Positions 17,192 through 30,774 of a stretch of 64,000 nt of DNA are shown one piece after another. Position 1 is the stretch's first letter; every line of letters starts with the position of its first letter. A program made the position numbers and the translations under genes. Source of the stretch: Polyangiaceae bacterium (GTDB lineage: Bacteria; Myxococcota_A; Polyangia; Polyangiales; Polyangiaceae). The DNA lies in assembly GCA_033763455.1 (NCBI GenBank), contig JANRKO010000020.1:1-64000 (forward strand), read 5' to 3'. Under the pieces are notes generated by a model. It was not told where the DNA came from, made no database searches, and was given only the letters and a program-made list of their open reading frames with translations.

Positions 17192-17884
17192 ATGCGAAAC
17201 CAACAAAGCTCTTTCATGGAACCACCCCGAAACCAAACGCTCCGACGTCTGCTCTTCTGCGCTGCCCTGTTGGGTGCCGGCGCCTGCGTCTACGACGCCA
17301 GCGAAAAATGCAGCACCAACCAACGCTATTGGAATGAAACCTGTATCTGCGTTGAAGGCGCCGTTCAATTGCCTAACGGATGCGTTCCATGTGGAGAAAA
17401 CGAAACCCCAGTGGGCAATGAGTGCGCCTGTGTGGCCGGCTACGAGCGACTCGAGGCTGGCGCTAAGTGCACGCCACGCGCGTCACAGCTTGGGGTTGCC
17501 TGTGACACCGCGAGCACCCCCTGCAGCGATCCCAATTTCTCCGAATGTCACGTCGTGAGCGGAACTTCCGGATACTGCACGAGCACCGGGTGCAGCGCGG
17601 AGAAGCCTTGCACCGGAGATTACGCGTGCGACACCAATGCTTCTGTTCCTTATTGCCGCCGGCCTCCCGTGGGCGCTGGGAAGGCGTGCGCCGCCCCAGC
17701 CGATTGCGCTTCCACCGAGGCCACGTATTGCGAAAGCTTCTCCACTAAACAATGTTTCGTACAAGGCTGTACCCAGAGTCCTAACAGTTGCTTTCCAGGC
17801 ATGGAGTGTTGCCTCATCAGCTTGCTCGGCAAGACCCTCTGTCTGCCTCCAGGTGGTTGCGCCAAGGCGGGAGGTACCCAGTGA
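17192..17884 (+). CDS. Cysteine-rich lipoprotein
   Basis: Lipobox-like LLGAGAC followed by many small Cys modules; start may be 17216. Confidence 0.7.
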   Translation: MRNQQSSFMEPPRNQTLRRLLFCAALLGAGACVYDASEKCSTNQRYWNETCICVEGAVQLPNGCVPCGENETPVGNECACVAGYERLEAGAKCTPRASQLGVACDTASTPCSDPNFSECHVVSGTSGYCTSTGCSAEKPCTGDYACDTNASVPYCRRPPVGAGKACAAPADCASTEATYCESFSTKQCFVQGCTQSPNSCFPGMECCLISLLGKTLCLPPGGCAKAGGTQ

Positions 17885-19407
17885 GACACACGTTTTGGAT
17901 GGGCATCGCCCTTGCTGGCTTCGCAAGCTGGACGCCCCTATCCGCCTCGGCAGAGGAAAGCAGTGAACCAATAGACGCGGCTTCGAGCTCAGGCGTCGTT
18001 CGAGGAGCTCCGTCAAACAGCCCAACACCGCCTCCCGCGACTTCCGATAGCGAAACAACCGACTTGGGGCCCGGGGCTCCAACCACAACGCCAAGCGAGG
18101 CACCTTCACACGCAGCAGAGAGCACGAACAATCAACAAGCCGCCACAGGTGCCACCCCAATCGCTTCGGATCCCCAGCCTGCGCCCCAGAAACTGAGCGA
18201 CGAGGAACTTCTTACTCTCGACAACGGAGAGCTCCCCACAGATTTAACGGACGACGCCCCAGCACTGCAACTCTACGGTTTCGCGGACTTCACCTACTCC
18301 GGGTTACTTATCGGAGACAACAACCGGTGGGCTCAAATCTACCACCCGTATGCGAGCTTCGCGGTGGGAAACCTCAACGTCTACCTAGCCTCCGAGCTGG
18401 GGCGAGATTGGCGCGCATTGAGCGAAGTGCGCTTCACGTATCTGCCGCACGGTTCAGAAAGGATAGTAAATGGTGTCACCGAACGAGCCGATGGCACAGC
18501 CAACAACTACGCGGATTTCGAGCGACCTGTCCAAGTGGGCGGCGTCATTTTGGAGCGCGCTTGGCTCGAATACACCCTCACCACCAACTTCACCCTCCGT
18601 GCCGGCCAATGGCTCACGCCTTACGGCATTTGGAACGTTGACCACGGCTCGCCCACGCTGATCGCAACCCACCGCCCTTTTACGATCGGCGAGGAACTTT
18701 TCCCCGAACGGCAAACAGGCCTTGAACTCCATGGGAAGTATAACCTCGGCGAGACTGATCTAGGCTACCACTTAACGCTTTCCAACGGCCGCGGCCCCGT
18801 GGACTCCTATCATGACTTCGACCGCAACAAAGCAATCGGAGCACGAGTTTTCCTCGAAACGCGAGTACTGCCCGGTCTTTTGACGGCGGGTGGCTCCTTC
18901 TACAAAGGAACCTATACAGATCGGGCTGAACTGAACTCCGTGGACTCATCTTCCGGCGAGCCCATCCTTTCGATCTCGCGCCCGATAGTGGAAAAATACC
19001 ATGAGCTTAGCCTAGCCGCAGATGCAAAGTGGGAATGGAAAGGCCTGCAGACGCAGAGCGAAGTCATTTTAAATCAAGCGGCCTACGATGTGCGGGGCGC
19101 GAGGCAGGGCCTCAATGGATCCTACTTCACTGCCGATTATCAGCGCTGGGGGGTGTACGGCTTAGTTGCGTACCAGCTGCCGTGGGTTCCGGTGATGCCC
19201 TACACGATCGTCGAGTACTACAACTTCGCCAACCGCCCTGAAGTTCCGCCCGGCGGCGGCGTTTACCTGGGGCTCAACGTGCGTCCTATCCCGCGCGTTA
19301 CGCTAAAAGGCCAATATACCTATGGCACTTTCGACGGGCTCGGCAGCTTGGGGCTCGGCAGAGATTCGATCAGCATTTTTGAACTGCAAGCAGCCTGGAG
19401 CTTCTGA
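17881..19407 (+). CDS. Putative outer-membrane beta-barrel (porin-like) with a disordered N-terminus
   Basis: Signal peptide, LQLYGFADFTY, LERAWLEY, LRAGQWLTPYGIWN, C-terminal QAAWSF with terminal Phe; GTG start overlaps the upstream TGA. Confidence 0.75.
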   Translation: MRHTFWMGIALAGFASWTPLSASAEESSEPIDAASSSGVVRGAPSNSPTPPPATSDSETTDLGPGAPTTTPSEAPSHAAESTNNQQAATGATPIASDPQPAPQKLSDEELLTLDNGELPTDLTDDAPALQLYGFADFTYSGLLIGDNNRWAQIYHPYASFAVGNLNVYLASELGRDWRALSEVRFTYLPHGSERIVNGVTERADGTANNYADFERPVQVGGVILERAWLEYTLTTNFTLRAGQWLTPYGIWNVDHGSPTLIATHRPFTIGEELFPERQTGLELHGKYNLGETDLGYHLTLSNGRGPVDSYHDFDRNKAIGARVFLETRVLPGLLTAGGSFYKGTYTDRAELNSVDSSSGEPILSISRPIVEKYHELSLAADAKWEWKGLQTQSEVILNQAAYDVRGARQGLNGSYFTADYQRWGVYGLVAYQLPWVPVMPYTIVEYYNFANRPEVPPGGGVYLGLNVRPIPRVTLKGQYTYGTFDGLGSLGLGRDSISIFELQAAWSF

Positions 19408-19907: not shown

Positions 19908-20363
19908 CTACTTGTCCTTGAGGCTGGCCACCACAGCCTTCAAACCATCAACATTCTTGATGCGCGCCACACGCTGCACGAGCTCCCCACCCACCTGCTC
20001 CTCGATCTCTTCCAGCTCCTTGACCACCCCAAGCTCCGTCGCAAAGCGCTTCACGAGGGCGCGCTCTTGGGCGGAATACAAGCCATCTGCATAGCCCAGA
20101 AAAACGCACGAGCGGAGAAACGTGTCCTTCAGCTCGGGCGTATTGAGCACCTCCTTAGCGTGCGTCAAATCAAACTCTCCGGCGATCAGATCTTCAAACC
20201 CGGAAAGCCCAGCTACCTCCTGGCGGCAACCTTCGTAAAATTCTCGCAAGAGAACGAGCTCCACCTGGTGCACCCCGTCTGCTTTCGCCACGGCGTGCAT
20301 ACCTCGCACAATGACCTGAACGTGATCCAACCCAAGGTTCACGGTGCCCAATGATTCAGTCAT
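19908..20363 (-). CDS. TerB-like protein
   Basis: Two TerB-type motifs: VAKADG...E and GYADG.YS.QE. Confidence 0.75.
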   Translation of the reverse strand: MTESLGTVNLGLDHVQVIVRGMHAVAKADGVHQVELVLLREFYEGCRQEVAGLSGFEDLIAGEFDLTHAKEVLNTPELKDTFLRSCVFLGYADGLYSAQERALVKRFATELGVVKELEEIEEQVGGELVQRVARIKNVDGLKAVVASLKDK

Positions 20364-20393
20364 AACAACGTCCTTCCCAACAAAACTTCAAAG

Positions 20394-22214
20394 CTAACGG
20401 ATCCCAAGTTCAGCACGCAGCTTGGCTAGGCGAAAGCCAAGCTCTTCCGCCGCCAAAGTACGAAAGCGCTCGGGCAGAAGTGCTCGCCGCGACGTCTCGA
20501 ATACTGCCAGAAGCTCCATATATTCCAGCATCCGCTGGTCTCGGCTGGGCAGATAGTCCGTAACGGCAGCCTCTAGCAATGCGGGAGTTACCTTAGAACC
20601 TTGGGTGCGGGCCGTGTCGTTTGCCAAGAGCACCACGGCTTCCAGATCTGCATTGGAGTAGCCAAGCAACCGCGCTGATGTCGTACCCCGCACCTGCCTC
20701 CAATCCAGCTCGTGTTCGACCTGGTAGCGCCCCAAAAGCGCATCCAGAACTTTCTCCACGTCTTCGGCCTGATCTGGATAGAAGAACGGTATTTTTCGAT
20801 CTAAGCGGCCTGCACGCTTGATATCAATATCCAGTTTATCTGGTCGATTTGTCATCAAGAGGAAGAGAACCTGGCCCCGATTCTCCGGGTCACTCATGAA
20901 TTCCTTGATACGCGCCATCACCCGTGAAGAAGTACCGCCGTCTTCGCCCCCCTCACTCCCAAATGCGCGATCTCCCTCGTCGATCACGAGCACGATGGGC
21001 CCGAGTGACTTCACCATCCCAAGAACCTTCTCGAGGTTCGCCTCGGTTGACCCTACCCACTTGGAGCGGAAATTCTTCAGCTTTACTGCCGAAAGGCCAG
21101 ATTCCTTGATAAAGGCATTGGCTACGAACGTCTTGCCGGTACCCATCGGGCCGACGAACAATAGGCCCATGGGCACCCGAGCCGTATCCCCAGCGCGGAT
21201 ATTCGCCGCGATTTGCCGCAGCTCCTCCTTAATCGCTTCGTTCCCGCCCACCGCACTTAGGTCATGGCGCGGCTCGATGAACTCGATGAGGCCGTAACAC
21301 TCCTTTTCGATGAGTTCACGCTTTCGCTGCGACACAAGAGCGAGCACTTCCGAATAGGCGTCCGCCTTTTCAGCTTGAGGCACGGCGTGGCTTGGATTGA
21401 TGAGGTGGCGAATTTGTTCCGCATCCATCCCGCGCGTGAGCGCGCCCAGCTTCTCGGCGCGCTGCTTAGCATCGACGCTTCCGATCAGAAGCGACTCGAT
21501 CAAACGCTGACGTTCGCCATCTTCCAGCGCATCGATTGGTTGCGGGGTGAGCAGTGCCGCAATCTGCACGGCCCGGAGGCCCGCAGTATGCTCACTCAAT
21601 AGCCGTACGTGGGCGGCATCGATGCTTGGATCGCTCTTTTGCACCACCTCACGTCGTGCTTCAATATCGGGCATCGGCACCTGCACGGCGGCTATCACCG
21701 GGTTGGCCACCAACCGCTGATTGACCTCTGAAAGCGCTTCGGAAACGAGAAACACTACGTTGTCTTTTTCGCGCAATTCAGGGCTCAAGCTCCAGCGATG
21801 CAGCGTGATGAGGCTATTGCGATCTTGCTCACTGAGCAGATTATATTCTCCATCTGGCACCATCACCCCAACGTAGGGAATAATGAGGGCCGTAGAATCT
21901 GCTGAAAATAGGACTGCTTCCAGGAGTGGCAGTACATCTTTTGGGGAACGCCGCAACCGCAGCTCATCAATTTTGGCGACAGCAGGGCTGGCTTTTAGGC
22001 AGGAAACGCCGAGCGCTGGATCATAAACCAAGATATTTTGCTTATTCTCCCACAGCAAGATCTTAGCTAAAAACTCTGTTAGCGAATAATAGCTCCCACC
22101 AAACAGGACCCTATCGAACACATTGGTGTGCAACAGAAACATGGACGCTTCGCCGCCCACGTACTTTCTGCGCACGCGTTCGGCCCAGGCGGGAAGGTTT
22201 CGCGCGTTCGCCAT
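20394..22214 (-). CDS. Classical-clade AAA+ ATPase (degenerate N-terminal module, intact C-terminal module)
   Basis: Walker A GPMGTGKT, pore loop SKWVG, Walker [25 protein letters not shown]. Confidence 0.9.
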
Positions 22215-22216
22215 TT

Positions 22217-22924
22217 TCACATTTTCTTCGCTGCTTGGGCTTGCTGTGCCCGTGCGGCCTTGAGATTTTCCAACTCCGCTCTGGCGGAAACACTGCCAGA
22301 TTTCTGGCGCAGTTCGCTCAGCCGGCTGTCGAGGTCACTATCTTTCAACTCCTTGCCGAGGTTGGCTTCTGCCACGGTGTTTTTGATGTGATCCCGCACG
22401 GTATCTAGCGCCCGCACCTCGGCATCCACGGAGATACCTTCGATCTGGCTTTGGATTTGGAGGCGAGCCTCGGCGCTCTGCATCTTGGCGAGCATTCGAT
22501 CTTTTTCGGCCTTTAGCTTACCGATCTCAGATTTGACGGCCATCAGCGAGCTTTTGGCATCTTCGGCATCCACCTTGGCTTGCTGCAACTCGGCATCGAG
22601 GCTCTCGAGCTCCTTGGCCATCGCGTTCTTCTTCTCGATCAGCACAATCGCAAGATCATCTTGGCCGCTTTGCAATGCCACTTCGAGGTCGGCCTTTAAC
22701 TGTTCAAACTCCTGGCGCTCTTTGTTGATGCGCTCGGTTACGTCCTCGCGGCGTCGAATAATGGCGGCTGTGGCGCTCTTGAGCTTCGTGTATTTCCCCA
22801 CAAGGCCATTGATGGCGTTCTCATAGGCGATCTCCGGATGCTTCTTTTCCACATCGGAAACCCACAGCGAAACGAAGCCCGACCAAAGATTGGAAAGCCG
22901 CCCGAAAAAATTGCTTGATGCCAT
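22217..22924 (-). CDS. pspA: PspA/IM30 (Vipp1/ESCRT-III superfamily) protein
   Basis: N-terminal amphipathic helix FFGRLSNLW, E..HPE, ALQSGQDDLA, long coiled coil, LDSRL.EL / AELENLKA. Confidence 0.85.
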   Translation of the reverse strand: MASSNFFGRLSNLWSGFVSLWVSDVEKKHPEIAYENAINGLVGKYTKLKSATAAIIRRREDVTERINKERQEFEQLKADLEVALQSGQDDLAIVLIEKKNAMAKELESLDAELQQAKVDAEDAKSSLMAVKSEIGKLKAEKDRMLAKMQSAEARLQIQSQIEGISVDAEVRALDTVRDHIKNTVAEANLGKELKDSDLDSRLSELRQKSGSVSARAELENLKAARAQQAQAAKKM

Positions 22925-22954
22925 TGCCCAAATTCCTTCCGCAAGGAGCCTACA

Positions 22955-23800
22955 CTAAGAGCCCATTACTTTGACCTGTTGCCCGGAGCGAGCTCGCATT
23001 TCCGGGATAAATTTAGCGAGATCTTCATCAAAAGCCTCGCTCACCTGACCCTGCAGACGCACTCGATCCACGGCCTCTTGAAGCTGCCGGCTCACTTCGG
23101 TGGAGCTCGGATTGGTCATCACCGCTTGGTAGACCTCTTCAAATGTATCCGCCAGGGCCAGCATAGAAGCCTCAGCTGACGCCTGCCTGGAACGTGTATG
23201 CGTGCGGCGCTCTAGCACGCCTTCGAAATCTTGCTTGGCTTGTTCCAAACGGCGCCTCTCTTCGACGCCGAGAGGTGCTTGGAGCTGGGCCTCAATTTCC
23301 CGAAGCTTGTAGGCAACCGCCTCCGCATTGAAGGCCCGTTCGCGCTCCTCCATCGCAAGCAAGGCCATCCACAGGCCCAAGAAATCTAAAGTGGCGTCTT
23401 CGAGGCGTTCCACATCCGCGAACGTGAGCGCAGTGCTCGAATTTTCAGCTACTTTCCGTAAGGAATCGATGCGCTGGCACATTCTTTGGTACGCGCCCCA
23501 CTGCGCGCCACTGTGATTACGACGGGTGATTTCCTCGAGCAGATAAGCGCGCATGCGCTGGCGACGTTCGCGCTGGCGACGAGCATCTACGCGAGCCCTA
23601 AAGCCCGCGCCATAGGGGATAAACAGCGCAGCCACGGAAGCTGTGGTGGCGTAGGCGATGAGCGGTAAAAGTGCCACCCCAAGGTCCGTTTGAAACGCCA
23701 AAAGGCCACTTGCCAAAGCTGCCCCGAAGGCGCCCAACACGTTGTAGCGATGCCGTAGCATCTCGGAAACATAGGAAGCTTTAGCGTCAGGTTCGGACAT
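22955..23800 (-). CDS. Membrane-anchored (2 TM) coiled-coil protein
   Basis: N-terminal hydrophobic hairpin followed by a helical body; tightly packed upstream of pspA. Confidence 0.7.
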   Translation of the reverse strand: MSEPDAKASYVSEMLRHRYNVLGAFGAALASGLLAFQTDLGVALLPLIAYATTASVAALFIPYGAGFRARVDARRQRERRQRMRAYLLEEITRRNHSGAQWGAYQRMCQRIDSLRKVAENSSTALTFADVERLEDATLDFLGLWMALLAMEERERAFNAEAVAYKLREIEAQLQAPLGVEERRRLEQAKQDFEGVLERRTHTRSRQASAEASMLALADTFEEVYQAVMTNPSSTEVSRQLQEAVDRVRLQGQVSEAFDEDLAKFIPEMRARSGQQVKVMGS

Positions 23801-23806
23801 GTGCCT

Positions 23807-23956
23807 CTACTTCGCCAATTGCCCGCGAGGTTCCGACTCGGGTGCCCCTAGCAACAGACGCCTCACGCCAAGGTGCCACGCCGCAAACCCTCCCGCCGTA
23901 AGGATCAGGAGTGCCAGCAGGAACCGCGCGAACGCCGTCAAGCGCCCGCCCGCCAT
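23807..23956 (-). CDS. Small single-TM protein (49 aa), first gene of the pspA operon
   Basis: GAAGGGAAGC-ATG ribosome site, one TM helix, 6-bp gap to the next gene. Confidence 0.5.
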   Translation of the reverse strand: MAGGRLTAFARFLLALLILTAGGFAAWHLGVRRLLLGAPESEPRGQLAK

Positions 23957-24096
23957 GCTTCCCTTCTGAGAACCGCCGTCAAAGTGCGCCAAAACATAGG
24001 GCGCCGCACCACGCTTGTCCAGGCGGACCGGTGCGGCTTTTCCGGAGCTCCGTTTCCTGGGCGCGCCATACTCGGCTAGGCTCGCCGCCTTTGCTT

Positions 24097-25290
24097 ATGC
24101 CCGAATCTACTGGGGATGAGTCCCCGCCCCGCCCCGCCTCACATCCCGTTGCTGCCCGCGATACGAAGATAGCGACTTTCGCTTACGAACCTGTGGAGGC
24201 GAGCGGAGATCGTCCGTCTTTAGTGGACCAACTCAAGGCCGCCGCCGTAACCCGCGGGGCGCGTTCGGTGGCAACTTGGGGCCTATTTGTTATCGCATTG
24301 TTCGGTGTGCTGCACGTAGCGCGCGAAATTCTTATCCCGCTGACGCTCGCGCTCATGTTGTCGTTTGTGCTGAGTCCCCTGGTAACGGGGCTGCGGCGGC
24401 TCGGCATTCCAAGGATCCTGGGCGCAGCGGCAGTTGTGGGAGCCCTGCTATTTGCAGCCACTTACGCCATCATCGCAGTTTCAGGGCCGGCGGCCGCGTG
24501 GGCCTCCCGCTTCCCAGAGGTATTACACAGCGTCGAGGGCAAAGTGCGTCCGCTTCGGCAACCTGTGCAGAGCGTCACCGAACTTGCCGAGCGCGTTGAA
24601 CACATGACCGATGTTGCGCGCAGAACGAAAACACAAGCCGTAACGCTCGAAAAAGAAAGCTTCGTGAGTAGTGCGCTGGGCACCACAATAAGCGTGTTTA
24701 CCGCCGCTGTGATCATGTTAATTGCGCTCTATTTCTTGCTCGTCTGGGGAGATGTCCTCTTGGAACGGAGCCTGGGCTACGTCCTCCGGCTCGAGAATCG
24801 AGAACACACCTCCCGGGTGCTTGAGACCATCCACAAACGGATGTCGCAATACATCGGAACAGTGTGCGTCATTAACTTCGGTCTCGGTTCGGCGGTCGCC
24901 GCGACGATGAATTGGCTGAGCGTGCCCAATCCACTCCTTTGGGGTGTATTTTGCGCTGTCGCAACGTTCATTCCCTACCTAGGAGCCCTGGTGGGCACAA
25001 CGGTGATTGGGCTCGTCTCCCTGTTTACGTTCCCGACGTTGGGGCAGGCTGCCCTTCCGCCGTTAGCCTATTTTGGTCTTACGTTCATCGAGGGAAACTT
25101 CGTAACACCCTACGTGCTCGGCCGGGCCTTCCAGCTAAATCCTCTGGTAATCTTCATTTGGTTGGTATTTTGGGGTTGGCTTTGGGGCGTAGCTGGGGCC
25201 ATCGTGGCCGTGCCAATGCTGATGCTCCTCAAGCTCACTTGCGAAAACAGCGACGTATTGGCTCCTGTGGCGCGGCTTATTAGCCGTTAA
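24097..25290 (+). CDS. AI-2E family transporter
   Basis: Multiple TMs, ILIPLTLALMLSFVLSPLV, FIPYLG, IEGNFVTP, WGVAGAIVAVP; start moved from 23911. Confidence 0.88.
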   Translation: MPESTGDESPPRPASHPVAARDTKIATFAYEPVEASGDRPSLVDQLKAAAVTRGARSVATWGLFVIALFGVLHVAREILIPLTLALMLSFVLSPLVTGLRRLGIPRILGAAAVVGALLFAATYAIIAVSGPAAAWASRFPEVLHSVEGKVRPLRQPVQSVTELAERVEHMTDVARRTKTQAVTLEKESFVSSALGTTISVFTAAVIMLIALYFLLVWGDVLLERSLGYVLRLENREHTSRVLETIHKRMSQYIGTVCVINFGLGSAVAATMNWLSVPNPLLWGVFCAVATFIPYLGALVGTTVIGLVSLFTFPTLGQAALPPLAYFGLTFIEGNFVTPYVLGRAFQLNPLVIFIWLVFWGWLWGVAGAIVAVPMLMLLKLTCENSDVLAPVARLISR

Positions 25291-25406
25291 CGGGGGCTGC
25301 GTAGAAGCCACACAACGCCGTAAGAGATGCTGCTGGAGCCGGTAGAAGTACGAATCCATTCCGCACGCAGCGTCAGGCTGTGCTACGCCACTGCTCCGGA
25401 AACCCT

Positions 25407-25724
25407 ATGAGCTTTGAAGAATCCCAACAGCGCCACAAGTCTGCAAACCGCAACGACGCCTGTCCGTGCGGATCTGGTCGCAAGTACAAGAAATGCCACT
25501 GGGCAGAGGACGAAACAGCCATCCACGCTGAGCTAAAGCTTCGCGAAGAAGCTGCCAAGGCGGCGCTCGACGAAGAAAACGCGAAGGCTGAAGCCGAGGG
25601 CACGAGCACCGAGGGTACGGGCAAGGCGGCCATCAAGAACCGAGGCCAGTCTATGTCTTCCCTGGCAGCCAAAGGCCGAGCCCAAGCTCGCCCCACGAAT
25701 TTGCCTCGGCGAGGCGCGGTCTAA
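25407..25724 (+). CDS. SEC-C motif protein
   Basis: RNDACPCGSGRKYKKCH. Confidence 0.8.
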   Translation: MSFEESQQRHKSANRNDACPCGSGRKYKKCHWAEDETAIHAELKLREEAAKAALDEENAKAEAEGTSTEGTGKAAIKNRGQSMSSLAAKGRAQARPTNLPRRGAV

Positions 25725-25734
25725 GGCAGCAAAA

Positions 25735-26583
25735 TTACCTGTCCGCTCGGGATCTGCAGCCGAGCTGTGCGCCTAGCCTCCCAAGCCCCGCCTCAAGCAG
25801 GGCCCCGCGTTTCGCCTCCAGCAGTGGGAAAACGTCGAGGTGTGCTCGGCGCTCTACCTCGTCGATCGAGATCTGGTGATCGCAAAAATTGGCGTGTAAG
25901 TCAGTCGTTTGCTCGAACGCGAGGCTGAGCGTTTCGAAGCTGTTTTGATCCCCAGTGCTCACCACCTTCCAATAGCCGCTCGGCACCCGATGTGGCTCGT
26001 CAGCTTTGGGCAACAGCGGCATTTCCTGCTCGAAGAGCGGGCCAGTTAACACCCAAACCTGCGCCGTGCGCGCAAGCTGCCGCTCCAACTCCTCAACCTT
26101 CATCCAGGCACCTTGATTAAGCGAAGCCGCCTGCGGGGTAATGTTCGAGAGATAGTTGAGGGTTTCCCAGAAGGGCGATCCCTCAAAGCTGCCCAGCGGG
26201 GCTTGATGGCCACGGTCCCAGCCAAGCAAGCGAGAGGCCTGGCTAAAGTCAGGCGGCTCCAGCGTTGCTGCTTCGGGTAATGCTGGATCCGCGCGCCAGT
26301 GGCGCGGGCGATGCCGGCCAAAATTGGCTGCATCGACGCGGTAGGCCACCCAATCAGCGAACTTGGTAACTGGATTCGCACTCAGCGAATAAAGCGGTCG
26401 CTCCAGCAGCAGGTTCGCGCCTGGTGCTCCAGCAGGGCAACCGAACAAGCATGCTTCTGCTGGTGCTGCCGGCTTCGCCTCAGGTGCATCTTGACCTTGG
26501 GAAAGGCTCAATAAGGCGACTGCCGCCGCGATGAGCAGCCCCACCACGAGGGCCCTTCTGACGAACGCGCGAAAAAGTCTCAA
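25735..26583 (-). CDS. Exported DNA/RNA non-specific endonuclease (NucA-type)
   Basis: Signal/TM N-terminus, ADWVAY, DRGHQAP, SNITPQ, LNQGAW..VE, VPSGYWKV. Confidence 0.92.
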   Translation of the reverse strand: MRLFRAFVRRALVVGLLIAAAVALLSLSQGQDAPEAKPAAPAEACLFGCPAGAPGANLLLERPLYSLSANPVTKFADWVAYRVDAANFGRHRPRHWRADPALPEAATLEPPDFSQASRLLGWDRGHQAPLGSFEGSPFWETLNYLSNITPQAASLNQGAWMKVEELERQLARTAQVWVLTGPLFEQEMPLLPKADEPHRVPSGYWKVVSTGDQNSFETLSLAFEQTTDLHANFCDHQISIDEVERRAHLDVFPLLEAKRGALLEAGLGRLGAQLGCRSRADR

Positions 26584-26641
26584 GGCTCGCGAGAATATGC
26601 CTGGGAAACCCCAGCCGAGCCACTCCTGAGTTCTGCGCAGC

Positions 26642-27517
26642 CTAGTTTAGCTGCATCACCGACACGACGTCGATTTGAACAAATTGTCCGTCAAATGCCT
26701 GCGGTGCGGGCGGCACCCCGGGCGCAACCACGTTGACGTTCGCTGCCTGCTCGGTGTTGTCGTCTTTGTAATTGAACGTCACCGTTGTGCCGCCGTTTAC
26801 CGTGATATCCGCGAGGTAGTCGAGCGCAAAGATCTGATGGTCGAAGGCGCCGTCAAGCGAGTAGAACGCATTGATGTAGTACTTCTTCGCCGGCTGGGCC
26901 ACATCCAGCCAGAACACGGCGTGTGCGTCTTCGTTGGGCGTACCTTGAGTGCTGTCGATGAAGTAGGGGCCCGGAGTAACGGTATCGATCGGCGAATTGT
27001 TCAAGTCCGTAAAGGTGTGGCCTTCGGTGACGCCCCGAATATGTAGCGTTACCTTGTAGCTCTTTTGTGGATCGCCCCCGAATGTTAACGTCTGCGCTGG
27101 CAGAGTCATGACATTGGAACACAACTCCCCCTCGTGCGCCCCAAGGCACGGCACCTCGATGCGCGTGTTGAGCGCGGAGGCAATGCCGAGGTCCCCGGCG
27201 CCTCCCGAACCCGAACCTCCCGCAGAAGTGCTGCCCCCTGTTTGGGCCGTGCCACCGCCCAGGCTTGAGCCTCCGCCCGTGGCCGGGCTGGTGCCTCCAG
27301 CAGCCGCCGCACGGCCTCCAGCCGATGTGCCCGAGCCTCCCGACGCCATCGAAGCGCCTCCCGCTCCGGGTGCCTCTCCCATTTTCCCCGGCGCCGAACT
27401 TCCCCCAGTAGCGGCAGACGCGCCACCCGTGCCCACACGTGCGGGCGTGGCGTTGTCCGTTTCGCTGCACGCGCCAAGTGTCACTAAGGTCAAAGCTACC
27501 ACACACAGGTTTCTCAT
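26642..27517 (-). CDS. Lipoprotein with a Gly/Ser-rich linker, function unknown
   Basis: Lipobox LGAC, GG-rich linker, beta-rich C-terminal domain. Confidence 0.7.
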   Translation of the reverse strand: MRNLCVVALTLVTLGACSETDNATPARVGTGGASAATGGSSAPGKMGEAPGAGGASMASGGSGTSAGGRAAAAGGTSPATGGGSSLGGGTAQTGGSTSAGGSGSGGAGDLGIASALNTRIEVPCLGAHEGELCSNVMTLPAQTLTFGGDPQKSYKVTLHIRGVTEGHTFTDLNNSPIDTVTPGPYFIDSTQGTPNEDAHAVFWLDVAQPAKKYYINAFYSLDGAFDHQIFALDYLADITVNGGTTVTFNYKDDNTEQAANVNVVAPGVPPAPQAFDGQFVQIDVVSVMQLN

Positions 27518-27570
27518 CAATCACTCCGGGAATAGGTAAGAGCTGAACGCCACGGATTCTGCGTTGAGAT

Positions 27571-28977
27571 CTACGCAAGAACGCCGGCGAGTGGCCCGTC
27601 CCCAAACCCGGTATCACCAAACGAGGCTACAGGCATGCCCATGGCATTCATGAAGGTTACGTGCAGCTTGTTATGCGGTTGCGAAGTAAAGGCGATGTGT
27701 TGGCCTGTTTTGATCTTGCCGCCCCCGGATCCGAAGATGAAAGCGCGAATATTATGGTAACTGTGGTCCGAGGCATAAGAGACCTCTGAGCACCAGAACG
27801 CCATCGAATTGTCCAAGAGCGTACTCCCGCCTTCGTTCACCGAGTCCATTTTCCCGATTAGGTAGGCGACTTGCTCGGCATACCAACGGTTGATCCACGC
27901 CATCTGCGCGTCCGAGGTCGGGTCACCCCCGTTATGCGAAATAGTGTGATGATCTTCAGTGATGCTGCCGCATGCACCACAGCCGGCAGTGTCGATCCAC
28001 TCGAGCCGTTCGAGTGATCGTGCATACGAATATTGCAGCGAAGCGACGCGTGTTAACCCGCACGCCAGTGCCAGCACGAGGAGATCTGCCTGCTGCTTGC
28101 CCACGGCCGGAAAGTTCGCGTGCAAAAGGTGATCTGCGAGAGGCATATATCCGACGGCTTGGCTGCAGGAGACGGGGCCAGCGGCTGCCCCCGACGCGAG
28201 GCCGCGTTCCACTTCGCGAATCATGCTCAAGTGCTGATCAAGCCGCACCTTGTCCGACGCGGGGACCGCTGCGTTGACGCTTTCGAATTCTTTGATCACG
28301 TAGTCGATAACACTACGGCGCCGCGCAAGATTCGCATCCAACATGCCCGGAACAATAGGAGCCGCGGTGACACCGGAAAACAAGCGATTGTACGCAGCCA
28401 AGGGGCTATCTTCTGGAGAGACGGGCTGCGTGGGGCCGGCATAGACCATGCGGCTAAAGGGGTGATTGCCGTAGCGCACGCTCGTTTGCACGCCAAACTC
28501 GAGAGATTTGTAGCGACTACTGGCTCCAACCGCAGTGGCTATTTGTTGATCGACCGAAATGCCGTTCGCAAAGCCCACGGGGTAGTCCGTATTGTCCTCA
28601 GCCTGAACCAACTTCGGATCCACCTCGTAGCTCTTACATGTCAACATGTGCCCCATGCCAACCGCGTGTTGATCACCAACATCTCCGGCGTCGGCGCTCA
28701 GCATATCGATCCCGCTCAACGCCAGGAGCTTATTCTTGAACGGGAGAACGGGAGCACTTTCAGTGCCCAAGGTGAAGTTTGCACCCACGCCCTGGGGCAT
28801 AAAAAGGCTAAAGTTGTTGGTCCCACACGGCGTGTAGAGCACAACAAACCGAGACGCCGGTGCGGCAGCATGTGCGGCACGCGGCACCAAGGACTCTAAG
28901 AAAGGGAGCCCGACTGCAATACCACCAGCAGCCTTCAGGAATTTGCGGCGCGCGGCGAATGGAAACTTGGCATTCAT
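27571..28977 (-). CDS. DUF1552-family protein with a Tat-like signal
   Basis: RRKFLK, LPFLESL, SVDQ.IA, SLEFGV, RRSVID, LACGLTRVASL, LLDNS. Confidence 0.85.
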   Translation of the reverse strand: MNAKFPFAARRKFLKAAGGIAVGLPFLESLVPRAAHAAAPASRFVVLYTPCGTNNFSLFMPQGVGANFTLGTESAPVLPFKNKLLALSGIDMLSADAGDVGDQHAVGMGHMLTCKSYEVDPKLVQAEDNTDYPVGFANGISVDQQIATAVGASSRYKSLEFGVQTSVRYGNHPFSRMVYAGPTQPVSPEDSPLAAYNRLFSGVTAAPIVPGMLDANLARRRSVIDYVIKEFESVNAAVPASDKVRLDQHLSMIREVERGLASGAAAGPVSCSQAVGYMPLADHLLHANFPAVGKQQADLLVLALACGLTRVASLQYSYARSLERLEWIDTAGCGACGSITEDHHTISHNGGDPTSDAQMAWINRWYAEQVAYLIGKMDSVNEGGSTLLDNSMAFWCSEVSYASDHSYHNIRAFIFGSGGGKIKTGQHIAFTSQPHNKLHVTFMNAMGMPVASFGDTGFGDGPLAGVLA

Positions 28978-28992
28978 ATCATGCAGCTCCGT

Positions 28993-30774
28993 TCAGGGTG
29001 CTTTACGAAACAAGAAGGCGTCCGTTTGGGTGATCCCCAAAAGGAGTTCTTTGACGTTTCCTTTGGAGGCATTAAACGCTGTTTTCAACTGTTGGAGTGT
29101 GCAAGCATCCTCCCCGGTTTCCACTCGCCCATAGGCAAAGTGAAACCACTGAGTGGTCGCGCAATCTCGCACCATTTTGCTGGCACCCAGCTTCTGCCCC
29201 AGCTCAACGGCACCATTGAACGTTCCGTCCACGTCTGTTCCCGTGAGTTCTCCGTGGCCGTCAACCGGCTTACCCGCCTCCTGATCCCGCCACATCCCGA
29301 CGGCGTCGTAGTTTTCAAAGCCAAACCCTATCGGATCCATCAGCTGATGGCAGCTTCTGCAGGCAGGATCGGTGCTGTGAGCCGCGAAACGCTCGCGCGT
29401 CGTGAGTGCGGGATTGAATGCCGGTACCATGATGTTAGCGTTCTTAGGCGGAGCAGGTGGCGTTTGGCAGAGAAGGCTGTCGCGAATGAAGAACCCGCGA
29501 GTCACCGGGTTGCCCTGCACCGGCGTAGAATGGCCGCCCAAAAGGCCTGCGAGCGTCAGCAGACCAGAACGCTGAGTTGCAGGCAGCGCCACGGCAGCTG
29601 GTGCAACAGGAGAACCCGGCGGAGTTACACCGTAAAACATTGCGAGTGCGTCGTTCATGTAGGATTGGGGCGACTGCAGGAGCGCACCCATGTCCCCGGG
29701 GCCGTCAAAGATCGTATGCTCTACGAAGGCCTCCGCCTCTTGGCGCATGAACCCCGCTATTTCAGGCGTAAACGTGGGGAATTGAGTGGCATCCTTGGTG
29801 AGCTGCCCCATCGAAAGAAAATCGAGCCACTGCGCATGGAAGCTCACGACACTTCCCCGCGCCTTCGGGGTGGTCAGAAGCCTTTGCGCCTGCGCCACCA
29901 CCTGCTCCTTCGTTCCAAGTTCTCCGCGGGCTGCCGCTCCCAATAGCTCCTCATCGGGCATGCTCTGGGTCAACAAATAGGAAAGCCTGCTCGCCCTTTC
30001 ATACGGACCGGCTTCAATGATTCCAGGAGCTGCGCCGACGGCGGGCCCGGCAGTCTCGGCCGTTTCCATGCGGTATAGAAACTGCGGAGTTTGCAGGATA
30101 GCCGAGGCGACCATCTGGATGGCATTGGCGAAACCTTCAGTGCCTTTGGAGGTTTGGTAAAACGCGAGCAGCCGTGTTTTTTCGGCCGCACTGAGCGGGC
30201 GCCGGTAACTCTTTAACCCAAAAGCATCGATGAATTGCCCCGCACACGCGTCCTCACCACTGGCTACGGGATCACACCCGAGCAGCCCATTGAGATTGCT
30301 GATCGCGGTGACTCCGAGGCTCGTTGCCGCCGCTTCGTACTGCTCGGCTAGGATCTGACTGACGCTGCGAACCGTCGCGTTGTTGTCGAAATTGTAAGCG
30401 CGCTCTTCCAAAGGAAAGGCGCGCGCTGGCTTGGTATTGACGCCGAGAAGTGCCTCGACAGTGTTGTCGTACTCGGTGTGCGTTAATCGCCGTAGAGGCG
30501 CATCGCCGGGTGACAAAACTCCCGGGTTGGTGCACTCACCAACCACTGCTGCCCCGCCTGTGCCGACGACTATTCCTCCCGGTCCCATCCCGGCACCACC
30601 GCTTCCGATCGCTCCTCCCGAAGCACCGACGACAGACCCATCGCCACCTGAAGCACTCGCCAGACTGCCCGGACCCGGCGAGCTTCCCGGTACGGAGCCC
30701 GTGCAACCCAACAAGCCAAAGATGGAAAGAGCGGCCAAAGCTTCGCCAGCGAGGCACTTCATGCGTAAACCCAT
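28993..30774 (-). CDS. DUF1587/1595/1592/1588-domain lipoprotein
   Basis: LRRLTHTEYDNTV, SPQFLYR-like TPQFLYR, ASRLSYLL..SMPD, RSGLLT, TTRERF..H..CRSCH..MDPIGFGFENYD; start uncertain. Confidence 0.85.
   Translation of the reverse strand: MGLRMKCLAGEALAALSIFGLLGCTGSVPGSSPGPGSLASASGGDGSVVGASGGAIGSGGAGMGPGGIVVGTGGAAVVGECTNPGVLSPGDAPLRRLTHTEYDNTVEALLGVNTKPARAFPLEERAYNFDNNATVRSVSQILAEQYEAAATSLGVTAISNLNGLLGCDPVASGEDACAGQFIDAFGLKSYRRPLSAAEKTRLLAFYQTSKGTEGFANAIQMVASAILQTPQFLYRMETAETAGPAVGAAPGIIEAGPYERASRLSYLLTQSMPDEELLGAAARGELGTKEQVVAQAQRLLTTPKARGSVVSFHAQWLDFLSMGQLTKDATQFPTFTPEIAGFMRQEAEAFVEHTIFDGPGDMGALLQSPQSYMNDALAMFYGVTPPGSPVAPAAVALPATQRSGLLTLAGLLGGHSTPVQGNPVTRGFFIRDSLLCQTPPAPPKNANIMVPAFNPALTTRERFAAHSTDPACRSCHQLMDPIGFGFENYDAVGMWRDQEAGKPVDGHGELTGTDVDGTFNGAVELGQKLGASKMVRDCATTQWFHFAYGRVETGEDACTLQQLKTAFNASKGNVKELLLGITQTDAFLFRKAP

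Follow-up and report, generated by a model that had tools for sequence, protein, structure and literature searches.

ESCRT-III polymers in eukaryotes and archaea work only because Vps4 dismantles them with ATP. Can a bacterial polymer of the same superfamily, PspA, be turned over in a comparable way? According to the available text of a current review, an ATPase resembling Vps4 "appears absent in bacteria", and in Proteobacteria PspA forms an inhibitory complex with PspF, an AAA+ protein (PMC7619361). The closest described system is an in-silico neighbourhood in which PspA occurs with an inactive classical AAA and a classical AAA (Ravi et al. 2024, mSystems, PMC11237479), and which, in the available text, also includes a membrane-anchored coiled-coil "divergent Snf7" protein (PMC11237479, Supplementary Text 2.2). 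In that paper and supplement, as available, "TerB" and "tellurite" have 0 occurrences, and we found no discussion of the PspA C-terminal tail. An earlier note on the DNA described here held that PspA-AAA neighbourhoods had been noted computationally and that no functional study was known; the available text agrees (PMC11237479), and our literature search found no experimental study of a module of PspA and a tandem AAA protein.

Here, we analyze an operon in a stretch of 64,000 nucleotides (the window) from an uncultured myxobacterium. We consider it probable (roughly 0.6) that the window carries a compact member of a module composed of PspA, a tandem AAA ATPase, and a membrane-anchored helical protein, in which the ATPase disassembles or remodels the PspA polymer.

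Results

The ORF list of the window contains five co-oriented genes on the minus strand (19908..23992), in the order small transmembrane (TM) ORF, 2-TM helical protein, PspA, 608-residue AAA ATPase, and TerB-domain protein. This is the gene content that the earlier note had claimed. Its gaps of 2 to 30 bp were nearly right, the measured spacings being 6, 30, -4, and 30 nt, with the stop codon of pspA overlapping the GTG start of the ATPase gene by 4 nt. The operon end that it placed at 23956 proved to be an ATG within the first ORF, whose TTG start moves the end to 23992. This small ORF (23807..23992, minus strand) encodes 61 residues from the TTG at 23992, or 49 residues from the ATG at 23956, with one predicted TM helix. 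Its hydrophobic core and reading frame are conserved in close relatives (L001, L002, L003, and L055), it matched no Pfam or NCBIfam family, and at more distant loci ABC-transporter or binding-protein genes occupy its position. We regard it as a lineage-specific member whose place in the operon is doubtful, and we count four genes as the core of the module. Directly upstream lies a sigma-70-like promoter match (23993..24021, minus strand) with 9/12 hexamer matches. The region examined holds 2 such sites versus 2.0 expected by chance, and we treat this match as a weak lead only. There is no transcription factor gene inside the operon, and genes that encode an ABC ATPase, a permease, and a PBPB-OmpA protein are absent from the operon and its flanks in the window.

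The gene surroundings bear on a suggestion of the earlier note that the operon serves anti-phage defence, that is, as an anti-phage or abortive-infection system perturbing the membrane upon infection. The neighbours are an AI-2E transporter and porin-like and secreted proteins, with no defence genes among them. When the operon was searched against PADLOC-DB 2.0, the AAA cassette gave generic matches to IetA, TRIP13, and DolB models. Weak partial AAA matches to the IetA (E 7.5e-11), TRIP13, and IteA models can be counted in favour of a defence role, as can the TerB domain, since some ter clusters linked to stress and defence include proteins with this domain. However, the non-AAA matches were limited to three near-threshold ones on PspA (JetC, DrmA, and PDC-S05; E 0.005 to 0.01), and the two membrane ORFs and the TerB protein matched nothing in that database. 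The module also occurs in many families of our phylum sample, and metagenome loci carry it with ABC-importer genes, as would be expected of a housekeeping envelope function. With no known defence family matched in PADLOC-DB 2.0, the suggestion found no support, and we consider this explanation highly improbable.

The third gene encodes a protein of 235 residues (22217..22924, minus strand) that belongs to a divergent subfamily of PspA/IM30, in the ESCRT-III superfamily. It matches PspA_IM30 (PF04012) with an E value of 3.5e-18 and 66.4 bits (cut-off, 33.9), passing the gathering score with residues 6 to 226 on profile positions 2 to 219 of 220. When a family profile was built from 26 sequences, it hit two Vipp1/PspA cryo-EM chains, 8qfv and 6zvr, over residues 3 to 223 (E 2.4e-18 to 2.8e-18). 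The N-terminal helix (residues about 6 to 23, FFGRLSNLWSGFVSLWVS; 22856..22909, minus strand) is strongly conserved in the 26 sequences and is presumed, by analogy with published PspA alpha-0 work in the text available (PMC12358876), to be the membrane-binding helix alpha-0. Across the genome, which is 93.67% complete, this PspA is the sole PF04012 match. The same genome-wide searches returned zero matches to PspB (PF06667) and PspC (PF04024) and 29 sigma-54-activator-like matches with 0 above the PspF cut-off, the best TIGR02974 match scoring 296.5 bits versus a cut-off of 443.55. The absence of pspF, pspB, and pspC that the earlier note had claimed for the locus therefore extends to the searched genome.

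The ATPase (20394..22220, minus strand; 608 residues from a GTG start) is not the single cassette that a Vps4-type enzyme would have. Its AF2 model (pLDDT 91) aligns by Foldseek over about 600 columns to NVL, Rix7, p97, Cdc48, and AFG2, with E values of about 1e-20, TMq of 0.51 to 0.57 among the ten best matches, and both halves of the protein covered; VAT, Cdc48, and p97 are the best matches of its sequence profile. Pfam detects AAA (PF00004) at residues 353 to 479 only (E 2.4e-26). The N-terminal half is an AAA-fold domain, D1 (residues about 10 to 280; 21381..22193, minus strand), without Walker A or Walker B. In hhalign of the two halves, residues 97 to 224 pair with the region of the C-terminal half that spans Walker B, sensor-1, the arginine fingers, and the lid (E 5e-4; probability, 31%). 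The Walker B position of D1 reads ALIIPYVGV, and its P-loop position lacks a Walker A. The C-terminal cassette, D2 (residues 295 to 608; 20397..21338), carries a Walker A GPMGTGKT (residues 357 to 364; 21129..21152), the pore loop KWVG that the earlier note had pointed out (residues 387 to 390; 21051..21062), and a Walker B VLVIDEGD (residues 410 to 417; 20970..20993), all on the minus strand. Across 40 family sequences, K363, G390 (the glycine of KWVG), D414, E415, R469, and R472 are invariant. From these motifs and the model, the protein belongs with the tandem AAA enzymes of the Cdc48/p97 type; its D1 is degenerate, and its D2 is intact and predicted to be active. A Vps4-type identity was rejected on account of the two AAA folds, the dead D1, and the lack of an MIT domain, for which Pfam gave no match and whose place, residues 10 to 280, is taken by AAA fold. 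The first D1 strand lies at residues 27 to 32, leaving no room for an N-terminal double-psi-barrel domain.

Could the ATPase instead act as a regulator or holdase that, like bound PspF in Escherichia coli, holds PspA in a soluble, inactive state until stress, or that chaperones PspA assembly onto the 2-TM protein? The PspA-PspF complex of Proteobacteria offers a precedent in the available text (PMC7619361). A genome with no PspF equivalog, PspB, or PspC would need another means of control, and a nucleotide-dead D1 ring could serve as a binding platform. However, D2 retains every motif of an unfoldase, among them the aromatic pore loop and the two arginines, without variation in the 40 sequences. 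Such a set is characteristic of translocating enzymes among classical AAA proteins. Together with the finding that Pfam detects no DNA-binding domain, this makes a regulator or holdase improbable in our judgment.

Gene order is conserved around the ATPase. The identical five-gene order is found in L001 and L002, whose ATPases are 84% identical to that of the window, and it is kept in L003, where the ATPase match falls in two pieces of 81 to 82% identity. The arrangement exceeds chance because the order recurs in these relatives and because the PspA-ATPase linkage is also found in distant ones. A conserved PspA-AAA linkage, on which the earlier note had staked its reading, is thus present: in relatives of the ATPase at 47% identity or more, a same-strand pspA gene is found upstream at 22 of the 25 loci with at least 4.5 kb of flank. 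In this identity group, either PspA or the 2-TM family is directly upstream of the ATPase at 47/54 loci, and all four core genes occur together at 11/22. These loci are not independent, as L104 seems to be identical to L037, and three others (L001, L002, and L055) are closely related to the window. In a phylum sample, 110 of the 112 genomes holding the ATPase also hold PspA, versus 309/401 overall.

New here is a paralogous ATPase clade (about 36 to 42% identity) that accounts for most matches in the phylum and has PspA nearby in only 4/17 loci. Its members often adjoin rplU-rpmA-obg or FHA/HEAT genes. One ATPase orthologue, at 54% identity (L004), likewise has no PspA within 5.9 kb. Because the paralogous clade mostly lacks an adjacent PspA, the ATPase family is not strictly a PspA-operon enzyme. 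An ABC ATPase, a permease, and a PBPB-OmpA gene make up a long form of the module in other relatives (L035, L037, and L038), and such transporter genes lie upstream of the 2-TM gene at 8 of the 13 close and more distant loci where the latter could be located (a 14th, L105, gave no match).

These distributions suit an enzyme with broader duties. The ATPase might be a general unfoldase for membrane-protein extraction or quality control, like Cdc48, Msp1, or a protease-less FtsH, with PspA as a co-regulated membrane-protecting partner and not a substrate. Its closest structures, p97, Cdc48, NVL, Rix7, and AFG2, are general unfoldases; 13/17 paralogous loci, in housekeeping contexts, lack a PspA neighbour; and the many loci with ABC-transporter and OmpA-fused binding-protein genes point to envelope work beyond PspA. 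Against it stand the tight coupling to PspA, with overlapping genes and a PspA or 2-TM partner directly upstream at most loci, and the behaviour of the PspA tail described below. We consider a general unfoldase rather unlikely.

The PspA of the window ends in K-K-M (22220..22228, minus strand), an instance of a K-x-[M/L/I]-COOH tail. The tail was found in 31/31 PspAs from loci or genomes holding the ATPase (26/26 aligned sequences and 5/5 unlinked PspAs in ATPase-holding genomes) and in 0/18 others (0/14 canonical PspAs and 0/4 related PspAs from genomes without the ATPase). The tail thus correlates with the ATPase and marks the PspA subfamily of ATPase-holding genomes, an observation that is new here. 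The 5 unlinked PspAs were not found adjoining the ATPase, and the tail persists despite this separation; in two of them both genes lie on one contig, 0.57 and 1.1 Mb apart. Genomes with an unlinked paralogous ATPase retain the tailed PspA subfamily, and the tail is missing from related PspAs where a genome has no such ATPase, which argues against PspA being a bystander of a general unfoldase. These counts come from related sequences, and the correlation may reflect no more than a peculiarity of a single PspA clade.

The second gene encodes a protein of 281 residues (22955..23800, minus strand) that begins with a 2-TM hairpin and continues as a helical bundle in the cytoplasm; its AF2 model is all helical (pLDDT 78). 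Neither the protein nor any of its 18 homologues, 16 of which were aligned, has a Pfam domain. Remote family members are directly upstream of the ATPase at 26/54 loci of the group with at least 47% ATPase identity. The earlier note had suggested an ESCRT-III fold for this product. Foldseek returned zero matches at E ≤ 1e-3, the top VIA-align hits were generic helical proteins (best Z, 9.0), hhalign of the family against the PspA profile gave a probability of 5.7%, and Pfam Snf7 matched none of the 16 family members at E ≤ 1. No match to ESCRT-III, Snf7, or PspM was found in these searches, and the suggested fold is not supported. The sole link to PspM is a feature search of the ESM Atlas, in which the nearest named cluster was Rv2743c/PspM (score 0.91; 201/256 features); the gene is absent from the matches of the Rv2743c model (PF25587) even at E ≤ 10, and we take the likeness as a lead. 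We propose that the 2-TM protein anchors the module in the membrane or recruits it there.

The last gene encodes a protein of 151 residues with no TM segment called (19908..20363, minus strand). Its match to PF05099 (E 5.2e-6, 27.2 bits; cut-off, 24.4) bears out the TerB-like gene of the earlier note. Four of five orthologues scanned score 34.1 to 38.9 bits, and for the fifth (L004) no family was matched. A profile of 24 family sequences matches PDB 2ou3 (E 6.9e-8) and TerB itself (2jxu; E 5e-4), and paired D-G...E motifs (D29, G30, E35 and D93, G94, E100) are conserved. The gene is directly downstream of the ATPase at 28/65 loci. A further new observation is that TerB goes with the compact arrangement of the module (11/11 versus 3/10), and we propose that it is an accessory component of this form.

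Discussion

How might the module work? In the remodelling mechanism that we favour, the PspA polymer would use its N-terminal helix to bind and stabilise inner membrane under stress, and the 2-TM protein would anchor or recruit the system there. The ATPase would form a double-ring hexamer in which D1, the nucleotide-dead ring, provides a scaffold and a surface for docking. The KWVG pore loops of D2 would pull on PspA protomers, with the tail as the likely handle, and drive disassembly or remodelling of the polymer with ATP, and TerB may be an accessory adaptor or sensor. We infer the physical interactions, the direction of disassembly, and the role in envelope-stress repair. This action would resemble that of Vps4 on ESCRT-III and be carried out by a Cdc48-like enzyme.

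A more specific version is that bacterial ATP-driven recycling of the ESCRT-III type arose independently of Vps4: a Cdc48-like unfoldase would extract PspA protomers from membrane-bound polymers via the tail, docking through the dead D1 and powered by D2, with the 2-TM protein as receptor and, in the compact form, TerB as an adaptor that senses stress. We offer this version tentatively, with the odds somewhat against it. If true, bacteria would have convergently invented membrane remodelling by a polymer and an unfoldase. The module is the best candidate answer to how PspA polymers are turned over, and the one studied here is compact and supplies the genome's sole PspA. The tail provides a concrete experimental handle that accompanies the ATPase even when the genes are far apart. 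Should the prediction fail, the module would still be a conserved envelope system.

In the module of Ravi et al., according to the text available (PMC11237479), PspA likewise adjoins a two-domain AAA with an inactive N-terminal copy, a TM and helical protein is part of the operon, and ATP-dependent membrane remodelling is suggested. Its ABC ATPase and PBPB/NMT1-OmpA genes occur in relatives of the window's ATPase. The window differs in having no transporter genes and in having a TerB-domain gene, and the Snf7 homology is unsupported for its 2-TM protein.

As in the Vps4/CdvC and ESCRT-III systems of eukaryotes and archaea, a gene for a superfamily polymer adjoins one for a classical-clade AAA with an aromatic pore loop. 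A possible further likeness is a conserved element at the extreme C terminus of the polymer subunit that serves as a handle. Vps4 recognises ESCRT-III through MIM motifs, to which we compare the PspA tail. However, the ATPase has no MIT domain and has two AAA folds versus one, and it scores 48.2 bits against NCBIfam CdvC (NF041006; cut-off, 650), below its scores for CDC48, PAN, and FtsH. The resemblance to Vps4 is thus one of function and not of family membership.

With Cdc48/p97/VAT, NVL/Rix7, and AFG2, the ATPase shares the D1-D2 tandem over about 600 columns, a KWVG-type pore loop, and two arginines, and D2 gives the best sequence match. Unlike these enzymes, it begins with D1 and has no N domain, and both Walker motifs have been lost from its D1; its score against the CDC48 model (TIGR01243) is 78.9 bits (cut-off, 802.65).

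The operon also differs from classical PspFABC in its lack of a transcription factor, and the genome in its lack of PspB, PspC, and a PspF equivalog. In PspFABC of Proteobacteria, LiaIH of Bacillota, and ClgR-PspA-PspM-PspN of Mycobacterium, a PspA effector is paired with a small membrane partner. The same pairing is seen here, where the role of PspB/C, LiaI, or PspM may fall to the 2-TM protein.

Organization of the operon and its genomic surroundings

The earlier note described five co-oriented genes of named content in this stretch, an observation that we confirmed as a whole. All five ORFs lie on the minus strand, and Pfam recognized the PspA, AAA, and TerB products, with NCBIfam in agreement for each. 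In operon order, they encode a 61-aa product with one hydrophobic helix (23807..23992), a 281-aa two-transmembrane (2-TM) helical protein (22955..23800), a 235-aa PspA (22217..22924; PspA_IM30, E 3.5e-18, above cut-off), a 608-aa AAA ATPase (20394..22220; AAA cassette at residues 353-479, E 2.4e-26), and a 151-aa TerB-domain protein (19908..20363; TerB, 27.2 bits versus a cut-off of 24.4). The first two, taken from the ORF listing, matched no Pfam or NCBIfam family. Intergenic spacings in the same order are 6, 30, -4, and 30 nt, with the PspA stop overlapping the GTG start of the ATPase. A promoter and terminator scan of the operon region returned site counts equal to chance expectation.

The genome (6.56 Mb, 93.67% complete) has no PF04012 match other than the window's PspA; neither PspC nor PspB was found in it, and 0 of 29 sigma-54-activator-like matches reached the PspF cut-off. 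The operon flanks contain a receiver-domain protein, family-less secreted and porin-like proteins, and a divergently transcribed AI-2E transporter, and they showed no Psp- or Lia-type regulator. The AI-2E transporter ORF (23911..25290, plus strand) is open from 23911, and its Pfam domain begins only at residue 125. Translation probably starts further downstream, near 24097, so the overlap with the small ORF on the minus strand is likely no more than apparent. The region 25380..29976 encodes a SEC-C-motif protein, a secreted non-specific endonuclease (Endonuclease_NS), and a DUF1552 / DUF1592-DUF1588-DUF1585 gene pair, all unrelated to the operon. On the other side, 17192..19407 (plus strand) encodes a 230-aa protein that is rich in cysteine and looks secreted, and one of 539 aa without a Pfam family; from its sequence, the latter may be an outer-membrane barrel.

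Could the operon be a defense system, as the anti-phage role proposed earlier would have it? No PADLOC system matched and no defense genes were present among the operon's neighbors, and we regard this explanation as highly improbable.

Architecture of the ATPase

The KWVG pore loop named in the earlier note is real and lies in the C-terminal cassette (D2) at residues 387-390. D2 also contains Walker A (357-364), Walker B (410-417), and arginines R469 and R472, motifs that are invariant across 40 aligned family members (30-50% identity). The N-terminal 290 residues had no Pfam match but constitute another AAA fold (D1), a dead one. When the N half was aligned with the C half by hhalign, residues 97-224 paired with the Walker B-to-lid region (E 5e-4, probability 31%), and D1 has neither Walker A nor Walker B, reading ALIIPYVGV at the latter position. 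The AlphaFold model (pLDDT 91) superposes on the tandem D1-D2 enzymes NVL, Rix7, p97, Cdc48, and AFG2 over ∼600 columns (E ∼1e-20), with TMq values of 0.51-0.57 among the ten best matches.

The ATPase is not an enzyme of the single-cassette Vps4 type. It is a tandem AAA protein with a dead D1 and no MIT domain, and its NCBIfam score is lower against CdvC/Vps4 (48.2 bits) than against CDC48 (78.9), PAN (68.8), or FtsH (68.3), all of them far under cut-offs. It shares the tandem D1-D2 fold with Cdc48 but lacks the Cdc48-type N domain. The ATPase may act in a Vps4-like manner, yet it is no Vps4, nor is it Cdc48 proper.

The family comprises 882 representatives at E ≤ 1e-30, and eleven longer members (696-987 aa) carried neither TerB nor PspA nor any other informative domain. 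Of these, P0120 (987 aa) and P0134 (931 aa) contain inteins (Intein_splicing, LAGLIDADG, and Hom_end_hint), with the intein and homing-endonuclease domains located within the active AAA cassette. A predicted complex of full-length ATPase and PspA, run without controls, gave ipSAE values of 0.00 and 0.00, which speak neither for nor against binding. That the ATPase serves as a holdase or a regulator seems to us quite unlikely.

The accessory proteins of the operon

The 2-TM protein had been put forward as a candidate for an ESCRT-III fold. In its model (pLDDT 78), a helical bundle comes after an N-terminal TM hairpin. Foldseek against the PDB returned no match at E ≤ 1e-3, and the best VIA-align wide hit (Z 9.0) was to unrelated helical proteins and lay under the noise level that the tool gives for such models. 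The hhalign probability against the PspA profile was 5.7%, and searching the PDB with a sequence profile yielded no meaningful match. With no specific match by any of the four approaches, the ESCRT-III assignment is not supported. The ESM Atlas had pointed to mycobacterial PspM (Rv2743c), a lead that the Pfam model, which does not match the gene, did not bear out. The 18 homologues in a large protein collection are all without a Pfam domain, and the most fitting description of the protein is a 2-TM helical partner without a family; in many loci, its remote relatives directly precede the ATPase. Only in the closest relatives are the frame and hydrophobic core of the small first ORF preserved, and in more distant loci its position is occupied by ABC-transporter or binding-protein genes; the ORF is lineage-specific and a doubtful member of the operon. 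The TerB assignment was reinforced by a profile of 24 sequences that matches PDB 2ou3 (E 6.9e-8) and 2jxu, and the protein retains two D-G...E motifs.

Conservation of the PspA-ATPase linkage

Of the 401 genomes sampled from the phylum, 112 contained the ATPase. We examined 103 ATPase-bearing loci, 4 from a single-protein contig search and 20 and 79 from wider searches; L003 and L078 were dropped from the locus counts as the ATPase was not recovered. Because the GC3-based gene caller misses or mis-starts some genes, neighborhoods were called on stop-to-stop ORFs with HMMs derived by iteration from the proteins of the window.

The main group consists of 76 loci whose ATPase is at least 47% identical to the window's. 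Within this group, the gene directly upstream of the ATPase was PspA in 21 of 54 loci, a member of the 2-TM family in 26, and one or the other in 47, counts that come from loci that are not independent and include some duplicates. PspA was upstream on the same strand in 22 of the 25 loci with at least 4.5 kb of flank, so that the PspA-AAA linkage on which the earlier note's reading depends is conserved. TerB was directly downstream in 28 of 65 loci, and all four genes were present in 11 of 22. In a long form of the neighborhood, ∼4 kb of ABC and binding-protein genes separates PspA from the 2-TM gene and ATPase; TerB occurs in 3/10 long-form loci versus 11/11 loci in which PspA adjoins the ATPase, as it does in the window. 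No PspA lies near one orthologue at 54% identity (L004:4235-11224), whose upstream neighbor encodes a receiver-domain/DnaJ fusion protein and whose downstream neighbor encodes a Ser/Thr protein kinase; a 151-aa ORF without a Pfam match occupies the expected TerB position.

A paralogous clade (25 of the examined loci, ∼36-42% identity to the window's ATPase) accounts for the majority of the ATPase matches in the phylum sample; in it, PspA was upstream in 4/17 loci and TerB was found in 0/23. The ATPase neighbors in this clade are often rplU-rpmA-obg or FHA/HEAT genes. Among the 16 genome loci scanned (L039-L054, e.g., L041, L048, L052, and L053; ∼40% identity), rplU-rpmA-obg adjoins the ATPase in four, obg alone in L039, and FHA- and HEAT-repeat genes in L047, L051, and L053; PspA or TerB is rarely beside it. 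One locus (L046:4836-7990) has the order TerB, PspA, ATPase, with TerB upstream of PspA rather than downstream of the ATPase. The unlinked paralogue favors the main rival explanation, in which the ATPase acts as a general envelope unfoldase and PspA is only a co-regulated partner; we consider this explanation unlikely.

A C-terminal tail on PspA

A profile built from 26 sequences of the PspA subfamily matches solved Vipp1/PspA structures over its full length (E 2.4e-18), and the N-terminal segment FFGRLSNLWSGFVSLW is highly conserved in the subfamily alignment. After a variable Ala/Gln-rich linker, all 26 aligned PspAs (the window's and 25 of the 31 distinct sequences from the loci, with six omitted as near-duplicate or truncated) end in K-x-[M/L]. 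In five genomes with a paralogous ATPase and no PspA found beside it, PspA ends in GKNL, KKTM, KKSI, KKTM, and KKNI; in the two with both genes on one contig, they lie 0.57 and 1.1 Mb apart. The tail was found in 0/14 canonical PspAs of the same phylum, 7 of them from ATPase-holding genomes, and in 0/4 related PspAs (∼200 bits to the subfamily profile) from genomes without the cognate ATPase, in which only generic AAA matches confined to the D2 region were found. This correlation is compatible with a putative recognition tail, but a clade trait alone could explain it.

PspA was present in 110/112 ATPase-holding genomes versus 309/401 overall. Pfam scores across the 401 genomes separate a canonical (E ∼1e-50) from a divergent (E 1e-13 to 1e-24) PspA class. 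The window's genome holds only the divergent class, and a single divergent PspA is usual in genomes with the ATPase paralogue. Most of the 26 PspA-holding genomes of the window's own family hold the canonical class; two have weaker matches only.

A proposed module and its relation to known systems

Building on the gene identities, ATPase architecture, linkage, and tail correlation that we observed, we infer every interaction among the module proteins and their physiological role as follows. The operon would be a membrane-stress module (probability of about 0.6) with the tandem ATPase remodeling or recycling polymers of PspA; the 2-TM protein would be the receptor at which this takes place, TerB might serve optionally as adaptor or sensor, and the handle might be the tail of PspA. 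The earlier interpretation is retained in part: the AAA ATPase with KWVG and its PspA linkage stand, and the ESCRT-III fold and defense role are not supported.

Full ESCRT systems are limited to the archaea and eukaryotes, according to the portion available of Makarova et al. (2024, PMC10936438), and a Vps4-like ATPase appears absent in bacteria, according to that of a 2025 review (PMC7619361). As the earlier note had held, PspA-AAA neighborhoods are known computationally. In the available part of their in silico study, Ravi et al. (2024, PMC11237479) report that bacterial PspA is found together with a two-AAA-domain protein whose N-terminal copy is inactive, a pair accompanied by membrane-anchored "divergent Snf7" or other coiled-coil proteins and sometimes by ABC and PBPB-OmpA genes, and propose ATP-dependent membrane remodeling by analogy with Snf7 and Vps4. 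Experimental work on a PspA and tandem AAA module was not found in the accessible literature, including a 2026 review (PMC13051332), preprint supplementary files aside. TerB and the C-terminal tail have 0 occurrences in the accessible text and supplement of Ravi et al. Judged from sequence, what we describe is a compact, TerB-bearing member of a kind of module already predicted from genomes.
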